From the NCBI RefSeq assembly GCF_006345805.1, contig NC_043004.1, forward strand, positions 16,244,001-16,308,000: a DNA stretch of 64,000 nt, written 5' to 3'. Made by a program: the position numbers and the translations under genes. A model generated the notes under the pieces. That model searched no databases, was not told the DNA's origin, and worked only from the letters and a program-made list of their open reading frames with translations. The number at the start of each line of letters is the position of its first letter. Positions within the stretch are counted from its first letter, which is position 1. This document shows, one piece after another, positions 58,797 through 59,725 of the stretch. Source of the stretch: Octopus sinensis. Its lineage: Eukaryota.

Positions 58797-59070
58797 CATA
58801 TATATATATGTATATATATATATATATATATATATATAGCAATTAAGGACAACTTCTTAATAAGGAAAACTTAACAAGAAATTATCGGGTAGATAGCGTG
58901 AAAAACCTCATAAGAGAAAACATTTCGAAAATAATTATTTCTTATTGAACATATTAAATTTATATATAGATACATGCCACACGCTAAGAGGGAAAAATTA
59001 GTCATTTCTACCAAAAATTTTACTAATCCCACCGAATGCAATTTTTCAAAGTAAGACATTTAAAAACATG

Positions 59071-59117
59071 GACTTGTATCACCTGTGATTTCATACCTCT
59101 GTATTCATCAGCAAGTC
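59071..59117 (-). ncRNA. Type I hammerhead ribozyme (minus-strand copy)
   Basis: Exact reverse complement of 59438-59484. Confidence 0.88.
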
Positions 59118-59437
59118 TGGACGTATTATAAATAAACGACCCTACATCGTCAAAGCCGGGCAGCCAACTGGCCAACATCAACGACGCACATGGGTTAGTT
59201 TACATATATTACATCCGGTAAATGGCAAACTTTTACGAATTGCATTTCGGGAAGGAAAAAGTTTTTTCGGAATAAAAATTTATTCCGAAAAAACTGTTCC
59301 TTTCCCGAAATGCAATTCGTAAAAGTTTGCCATTTACCGGATGTAATATATGTAAACTAACCCATGTGCGTCGTTGATGTTGGCCAGTTGGCTGCCCGGC
59401 TTTGACGATGTAGGGTCGTTTATTTATAATACGTCCA

Positions 59438-59484
59438 GACTTGCTGATGAATACAGAGGTATGAAATCACAGGTGATACAAGTC
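59438..59484 (+). ncRNA. Type I hammerhead ribozyme
   Basis: Stem I GACTTG/CAAGTC, core CTGATGA, stem II ATAC-AGAG-GTAT, GAAA, stem III ATCA(C)/(G)TGAT; cleavage triplet AUA, cut predicted after 59478. Confidence 0.9.
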
Positions 59485-59725
59485 CATATTTTTAAATGTC
59501 TTACTTTGAAAAATTGCATTCGGTGGGATTAGTAAAATTTTTGGTAGAAATGACTAATTTTTCCCTCTTAGCGTGTGGCATGTATGTATAATAATGCCCT
59601 CTATATATAAATTAATATATATATATATATATATATATTATATATATATATATATATATATGTATATATATATATATATATATATATATATATATATATA
59701 TATATATATATATATATATATATAT

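Follow-up and report, generated by a model that had tools for sequence, protein, structure and literature searches.

The mechanism by which metazoan non-LTR retrozymes are mobilised "remains to be elucidated" (bioRxiv 10.64898/2026.07.22.740005), and Penelope-like elements have been put forward as a "strong candidate" for this role (PMC7229834). Penelope-like elements are described as biased towards (TA)n, with an inverted 5'-truncated copy, a tail at one end and palindromes at the junction (PMC8557442, PMC3846280, PMC8969392); the origin of their tandem and inverted structures has been named as a next task (PMC8557442). The protein of the anole element Poseidon (PAc), a predicted dimer, nicks and extends both strands; it starts at two internal RNA sites which define the tail, and hammerhead cleavage is not needed (PMC11167929). 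Self-priming has been proposed for Penelope elements (PMC3846280). Pairs of hammerheads on opposite strands, 100-700 bp apart, were noted in Schistosoma in 2014 (PMC4209133).

The window analysed here is a stretch of 64,000 nucleotides of Octopus sinensis DNA (NCBI RefSeq assembly GCF_006345805.1, contig NC_043004.1, positions 16,244,001 to 16,308,000). It contains an inverted repeat (Table 1) whose matched arms (58965-59276 and 59279-59590) are 312 nt long and 98% complementary. An earlier note on this DNA had reported a near-perfect palindrome with a 2-nt spacer in (TA)n and no credible open reading frame (ORF). Both descriptions hold: the arms are separated by 2 nt, (TA)n adjoins them on both sides and no ORF of at least 120 amino acids overlaps the palindrome. 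There are five mismatches in 317 positions, three of them clustered in the T/C tract adjoining the turn. At the junction 4 nt are compatible with both arms, and they lie inside the short AAATTT palindrome of the repeat unit. The left arm continues for about 115 nt of family sequence with no counterpart on the right, 15 nt of the right arm are missing from the left, and the flanks have no similarity to each other. Since a fold-back read cannot produce a palindrome with unequal arms and unrelated flanks, and since 63 loci at separate places obey one end rule (described below), a long-read fold-back chimera in the assembly is scarcely credible, even though none of the listed contigs of four public runs (contigs, as distinct from reads) spans the turn. 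To the right of the element is a tandem duplication of about 1.24 kb (window 59615-62292), each copy of which has two inverted arms of about 65 nt facing a central (TA)n (for example 59728-59925).

Table 1 Features of the palindromic element (window coordinates) and of a chimeric insertion elsewhere in the genome. Unit positions come from mapping onto a natural monomer of the 458-nt unit.
Feature	Position	Strand	Basis or remark
(TA)n target, left flank	58798..58838		Sequence
Arm ending at site B	58839..59281	-	Full monomer, unit positions 1-457, less a 15-nt deletion
"Tail" between ends A and B	58839..58953	-	On the B arm only; sequence and census of A and B ends
Predicted hairpin immediately before end B	58848..58886	-	Folds of corresponding natural segments L020, L169, L272
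Type I hammerhead, identical copy	59071..59117	-	Predicted cut 3' of position 59077, minus strand
Head-to-head junction	59270..59285		Turn 59277-59278; sequence compared by eye with natural tandem junction in L019
Arm ending at site A	59279..59618	+	Unit positions 1-340
Type I hammerhead	59438..59484	+	Predicted cut 3' of A59478; stem I covaries across families
(TA)n target, right flank	59615..59727		Sequence
Chimeric insertion L199/L344	G000:C1, about 64,838,900-64,842,900		L344 2430-5101 with L199 1-2675

Each arm holds one canonical type I hammerhead with an intact core and three stems, as the earlier note had recognised: stem I of 6 bp, core CUGAUGA, stem II of 4 bp, GAAA, stem III of 4 bp with a 4-nt loop, and cleavage triplet AUA. 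These were the only two matches in a strict pattern scan of the 64-kb window, a scan that overlooked two looser hammerheads detected afterwards. The hammerhead families of Rfam did not match the window element, for which only generic miRNA hairpin models appeared, far below their cut-offs. Self-cleavage is a prediction in which the active fold is not the minimum; the predicted lowest-energy fold of the isolated motif differs from the hammerhead fold, which carries a penalty of 4.7 kcal/mol, and in all four families described below the hammerhead fold lies 2-7 kcal/mol above the predicted minimum. Eight of nine predicted Xenopus elements were reported without cleavage (bioRxiv 10.64898/2026.07.22.740005). 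A further motif in the window, at about 57660-57700 on the minus strand, is minimal and hammerhead-like, with a CCGACGA core and a palindromic stem III. The repeat around it is a different one, with an end at (TA)n near 57565, and is probably the terminal repeat of another Penelope-like family.

The window palindrome is one insertion of a non-coding family of 458-nt tandem repeats, a non-LTR retrozyme. The exact window core occurs 95 times in the 2.72-Gb genome. Three hammerhead patterns with different stem II lengths gave 2,311, 1,283 and 105 matches, and none in any of the backwards controls, so that relatives of the family account for more than 3,600 exact pattern matches genome-wide; a further family with a 29-nt stem II yielded 2,012 candidates at first look. 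Natural monomers of 458, 478, 487 and 475 nt were recovered; in their best alignments with the first, the other three show 88%, 72% and 78% identity. Units stand head to tail with nothing between them, up to about ten times per arm and in arrays of up to about 12. Non-coding tandem units of 458-487 nt with one type I hammerhead each are what is expected of a non-LTR retrozyme, as is the high self-pairing predicted for the circular monomer. Folded as circles, the monomers of the four families reach z scores of -4.7 to -5.9 in the sense and -1.9 to -3.3 in the antisense orientation (25 shuffles). Stem I, which is constrained by none of the search patterns, keeps its pairing through changes on both sides; it is paired in 87% of cells compared with 67% when partners are shuffled, a control inflated by related sequences, and 0 of 5,000 shuffles reached 87% (18 recurrent variants of 39). 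Stem I pairing and the structure of the circular monomer together speak for selection at the RNA level. None of the listed public sequencing runs containing family sequence is on record as RNA; the contigs of four such runs hold short pieces of the unit, and one run that we guess to be RNA carries pieces of the family, which we do not take as a sign of expression.

The earlier note had called the element a non-autonomous, TA-targeted, ribozyme-bearing retroelement linked to Penelope-like elements, and the family, its (TA)n flanks and its layout support this. It had also set the element apart from retrozymes because these are usually direct tandem repeats. That contrast is dropped, since the 458-nt family is itself a direct tandem repeat.

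Layout was mapped at 103 loci with one junction per locus. These comprise 71 loci of the subfamily in the window (three copies of one duplicated locus were dropped) and 32 of a sister family, out of 38 clusters among the first 100 matches listed; leaving out the six single-match clusters slightly raises the inverted share, and the choice of most loci by an intact core favours long arms. The array is inverted at 63 loci, always with the 5' ends inside and never tail to tail, and 40 loci are without inversion. (TA)n borders all 63 inverted loci on at least one side and 44 on both. Outer ends fall at two fixed sites 117 nt apart, A at about unit position 340 and B at about 457. Among the 57 inverted loci that can be classified (an end is unclassifiable at the other six), 55 combine one A with one B (p about 1e-14), one is A+A and one B+B; the same 55 carry the tail, 103-125 nt long in the family, on one end only. 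The pattern recurs in the 487-nt family, where 15 of 30 loci are inverted and, by eye, 13 of the 15 are A+B and the other two have a third end. Three loci of this family (L223, L226, L228) have an end at unit position 343-354, possibly a minor third start site. Evidence for a conserved fold that joins A and B is slight (z -1.4 to -2.6): the one recurrent structure is the hairpin preceding B, of which the 478- and 475-nt families have a similar predicted version. Within the window itself lies another member of the superfamily (37666-38239), 88% identical to the 487-nt family and arranged head to head, with a site B end before (TA)n and a long-stem-II hammerhead at about 37930-37995 on the plus strand. 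One retrozyme arm elsewhere is interrupted by a 1.7-kb insertion (L185 2572-4272) with a 473-aa frame that has a CCHC-like motif and no Pfam match, and which presumably resembles a LINE ORF1.

Beyond the two ends little is fixed. Arm lengths run from 28 to 4,912 nt and the turn may fall anywhere in the unit; a rule of "exactly one turn" holds for the window copy and is not enriched (4 of 55 arms). Of the "head-to-head dimer" in the earlier note, the orientation therefore stands at every inverted locus, and the defined dimer does not, given a tandem monomer of 458 nt, the 40 loci without inversion, the spread of arm lengths and the small number of symmetric junctions (below). The window palindrome is an ordinary outcome of insertion by this family, a by-product and nothing special, and the interest lies in the family-wide rule. 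The earlier note had also expected a read-through transcript to lock the ribozyme, and a long duplex is indeed predicted to do so, by about 80 kcal/mol. Its companion claim, that a transcript starting past the turn would free the ribozyme, agrees with the model, which however also frees the ribozyme in transcripts starting at or after 59150, that is, before the turn. It is very improbable that the palindrome is a selected device in which an antisense-locked ribozyme supplies dsRNA for ADAR or Dicer. The predicted lock would suit such a role and at 33 of the 63 inverted loci each arm could accommodate a hammerhead, but junction position and arm length vary freely, many loci are not inverted, coding Penelope-like copies form the same inversions and there is no sign of selection on the palindrome.

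Junctions bear on how the second arm arises. Arm starts lie no more than 10 nt apart at 12 of 63 loci, the window copy included, as against 3.3 expected by permutation; without two repeats of one site the count is 10 of 61 (p 4e-4). Three of these symmetric junctions turn in a natural 12-bp palindrome and the window copy turns at AAATTT. Such turns, and the variants shared by the two arms, are what would be seen if one target-primed cDNA folded back on a short palindrome and primed itself, the second arm being a DNA copy of the first, and this is the main rival for the window copy. In that copy, however, only the long arm could have been the template, yet it lacks 15 nt of the short arm, which argues against fold-back priming there unless the deletion came later. 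For the family, self-priming is unlikely, as 51 of 63 junctions are not symmetric and it gives no reason for the second arm to end at the other site. Microhomology was measurable at 37 of 62 junctions; 18 of these have extra bases, and the other 19 have a mean of 2.0 nt against 0.78 nt, a comparison too noisy to carry weight.

Substitutions connect the two arms to one template. The arms of one locus differ by 1.25%, compared with a median of 4.8% to other loci (43 of 63 loci, at least 100 shared nt), and the partner arm is no closer than the single best other locus (1.05%). In 17 arrays of the sister family, units differ by 0.57% within an arm, 0.99% across arms and 4.61% between arrays. Ten arrays have full units on both arms, and six of these carry array-private substitutions, found in each of their own units (as many as 12 across the two arms) and in none of the other arrays of the 17. 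This pattern is most simply read as copying from a single monomer template, which is likely circular, though shared variants might also come from gene conversion or from a linear multimer that is homogeneous. In a rival reading, a Penelope-like enzyme with double priming copied an uncut linear multimer from a homogeneous array and the hammerhead took no part, which we regard as possible but doubtful. Insertion by the anole enzyme is unaffected when the hammerhead is mutated (PMC11167929), 5' ends show no pile-up where the hammerhead would cut (6 of 126, expectation 5.0), and B arms stop near site A in 10 of 55 cases, more often than chance (p 0.004) though in an AT-rich stretch, as twin priming on one RNA predicts. 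The missing pile-up suits a circle equally, however; repeated copying of one monomer accounts most simply for private substitutions throughout both arms, and families that are about 70% identical have kept both the hammerhead pairing and the structure of the whole unit.

The genome contains many GIY-YIG retroelements, of which 150 of 5,029 candidates were scored. Unbroken ORFs of 781 and 775 aa match RVT_1 (just under the cut-off) and GIY-YIG. Copies of the 781-aa family terminate in (TA)n, and the two inverted loci among its 30 records in which both ends can be seen each have a tail of about 40 nt, confined to one arm. A second coding family, with 66% protein identity to the first, RVT_1 over the cut-off and GIY-YIG undetected in the scanned copy, has a (TA)n end and a tail of about 33 nt on one arm, again at 2 of 2 inverted loci with both ends visible. 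The two families thus share the inverted two-armed layout, with tails of 33-40 nt. No sequence common to the retrozyme unit and a coding element was found in the families sampled (30 GIY-YIG loci; 16 extended loci, of which 8 also belong to the 30; and 8 loci from the second family), so that sequence does not single out a driver family. Canonical Penelope-like elements have one ORF; in two loci of the 781-aa family a 479-aa frame without a convincing Pfam match lies upstream of the RT/GIY-YIG frame and overlaps it (L207 1174-2610, L210 5003-6439). The window has a decayed RT and GIY-YIG remnant of its own (20855-21860, plus strand), 30-49% identical to the 781-aa protein.

The layout described here equals that of Penelope-like pLTRs (PMC8557442, PMC3846280), as would be expected if the unit were the pseudo-LTR of a coding Penelope-like family after 5' truncation. 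This is quite improbable, because units repeat head to tail without a body between them and because coding families carry a different, minimal hammerhead-like motif. The window palindrome has no ORF with RT and GIY-YIG domains, and no coding parent was found through the three hammerhead patterns or at two loci with gaps between the arms; those 2-kb gaps, considered as a coding body, were extra units with unmatched cores and an unrelated insertion. RT/EN remnants lie near seven distinct places in 236 locus records (four were read, one is the chimera described next and two were judged by distance and strand), and none runs into the unit as an ORF followed by a pLTR. The motif of the coding families was seen by eye in the 3' UTRs of L207, L205 and L344; it has a TTGANAA core and a palindromic stem III and resembles the U3-A8 variant (PMC4209133).

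A single insertion (L199/L344), the sole chimera in 266 partly redundant records, combines both kinds of element. One arm, tail included, is a truncated copy of the second coding family; the other starts with 132 nt of the 3' UTR of the same copy (99.2% identical) and continues into a three-unit retrozyme array that ends at A, and the joint has no TA tract. As read from the sequence, this arrangement would fit a template switch in one insertion, and it may be a later retrozyme insertion with target deletion. Other matches of the chimera screen were judged by coordinates to be simple-repeat or flank parts of the references.

We propose, with a probability of about 0.75, that this retrozyme with its two fixed ends is written into (TA)n by a Penelope-like RT/GIY-YIG enzyme, on both strands, from one probably circular RNA. 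The process may be outlined as (i) tandem arrays would be transcribed, cut by the hammerhead once per unit and ligated into circles; (ii) the enzyme, probably a dimer, would nick both strands of (TA)n; (iii) one strand would prime reverse transcription at A and the other at B; (iv) each cDNA would comprise anything from part of a turn to about ten turns; (v) the cDNA ends would be joined, often with short microhomology or templated filler, into arms with their tails outwards. A near-perfect palindrome would arise when both cDNAs stop at the same unit position, as a by-product whose ribozyme would be silenced in transcripts reading through it. Against this proposal, the start sites of the anole enzyme in vitro did not differ between strands (PMC11167929). 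More tentatively, and with somewhat less than even odds, a dimeric Penelope-like enzyme may bind one circle and make a cDNA at each of the two sites, one per target strand, by rolling round it. If true, this would explain generally why Penelope copies have a tail on one end and a head-to-head layout, would name the retrozyme driver and would make L199/L344 a template switch caught in the act; an RNA cargo of 460 nt would then be written into (TA)n by an enzyme acting in trans.

Among the openly accessible papers searched, none was found to deal with these families or with inverted arrays of retrozymes. The main texts of PMC7229834 and of the preprint 10.64898/2026.07.22.740005 describe no inverted two-armed arrays, no pair of fixed ends and no (TA)n target, and the word "inverted" has 0 matches and 1 match in them respectively, the latter in a reference title. 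The two-armed layout is known for Penelope-like elements, with no description found for retrozymes. In other respects the octopus families resemble the metazoan non-LTR retrozymes of these two reports (PMC7229834; bioRxiv 10.64898/2026.07.22.740005), in having tandem monomers that are non-coding, low in GC and highly self-paired as circles, each with a single type I hammerhead, and in coexisting with Penelope-like elements proposed as drivers. Their monomers of 458-487 nt compare with RNAs of 170-400 nt (PMC7229834) and a range of 51-972 bp (preprint 10.64898/2026.07.22.740005); expression and circles have been demonstrated for metazoan retrozymes, whereas the families here are known as genomic DNA.

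With EN+ Penelope-like elements (PMC8557442, PMC3846280) they share partial tandems, a head-to-head arm and a hammerhead in the repeat that forms the termini, and differ in having no ORF, a tail of 103-125 rather than 30-40 nt, and a stem III of 4 bp where those elements have a minimal palindromic hammerhead. The Chlamys non-autonomous elements, such as MRC1 (PMC8557442), are likewise non-coding dependants of Penelope-like elements with pLTRs and multicopy head-to-tail insertions. Chlamys elements are described there as generally sharing 3' sequence with autonomous partners, while none was found for the present unit, and most are without canonical hammerheads. Poseidon of Anolis (PAc) likewise targets AT-rich DNA and starts at two internal sites, with the tail between them (PMC11167929). 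PAc showed no strand difference in bulk, in assays that did not resolve single events, whereas here the sites lie 117 nt apart and one of each is used per insertion. Thousands of young non-coding copies bear a Penelope footprint, and the family yields a sharp rule, one A and one B end per insertion from one template. It makes two questions raised for the known systems testable, namely how retrozymes are mobilised and how Penelope-like elements come by their tandem and inverted structure; as intact candidate enzymes are present in the same genome, both can be addressed in vitro.
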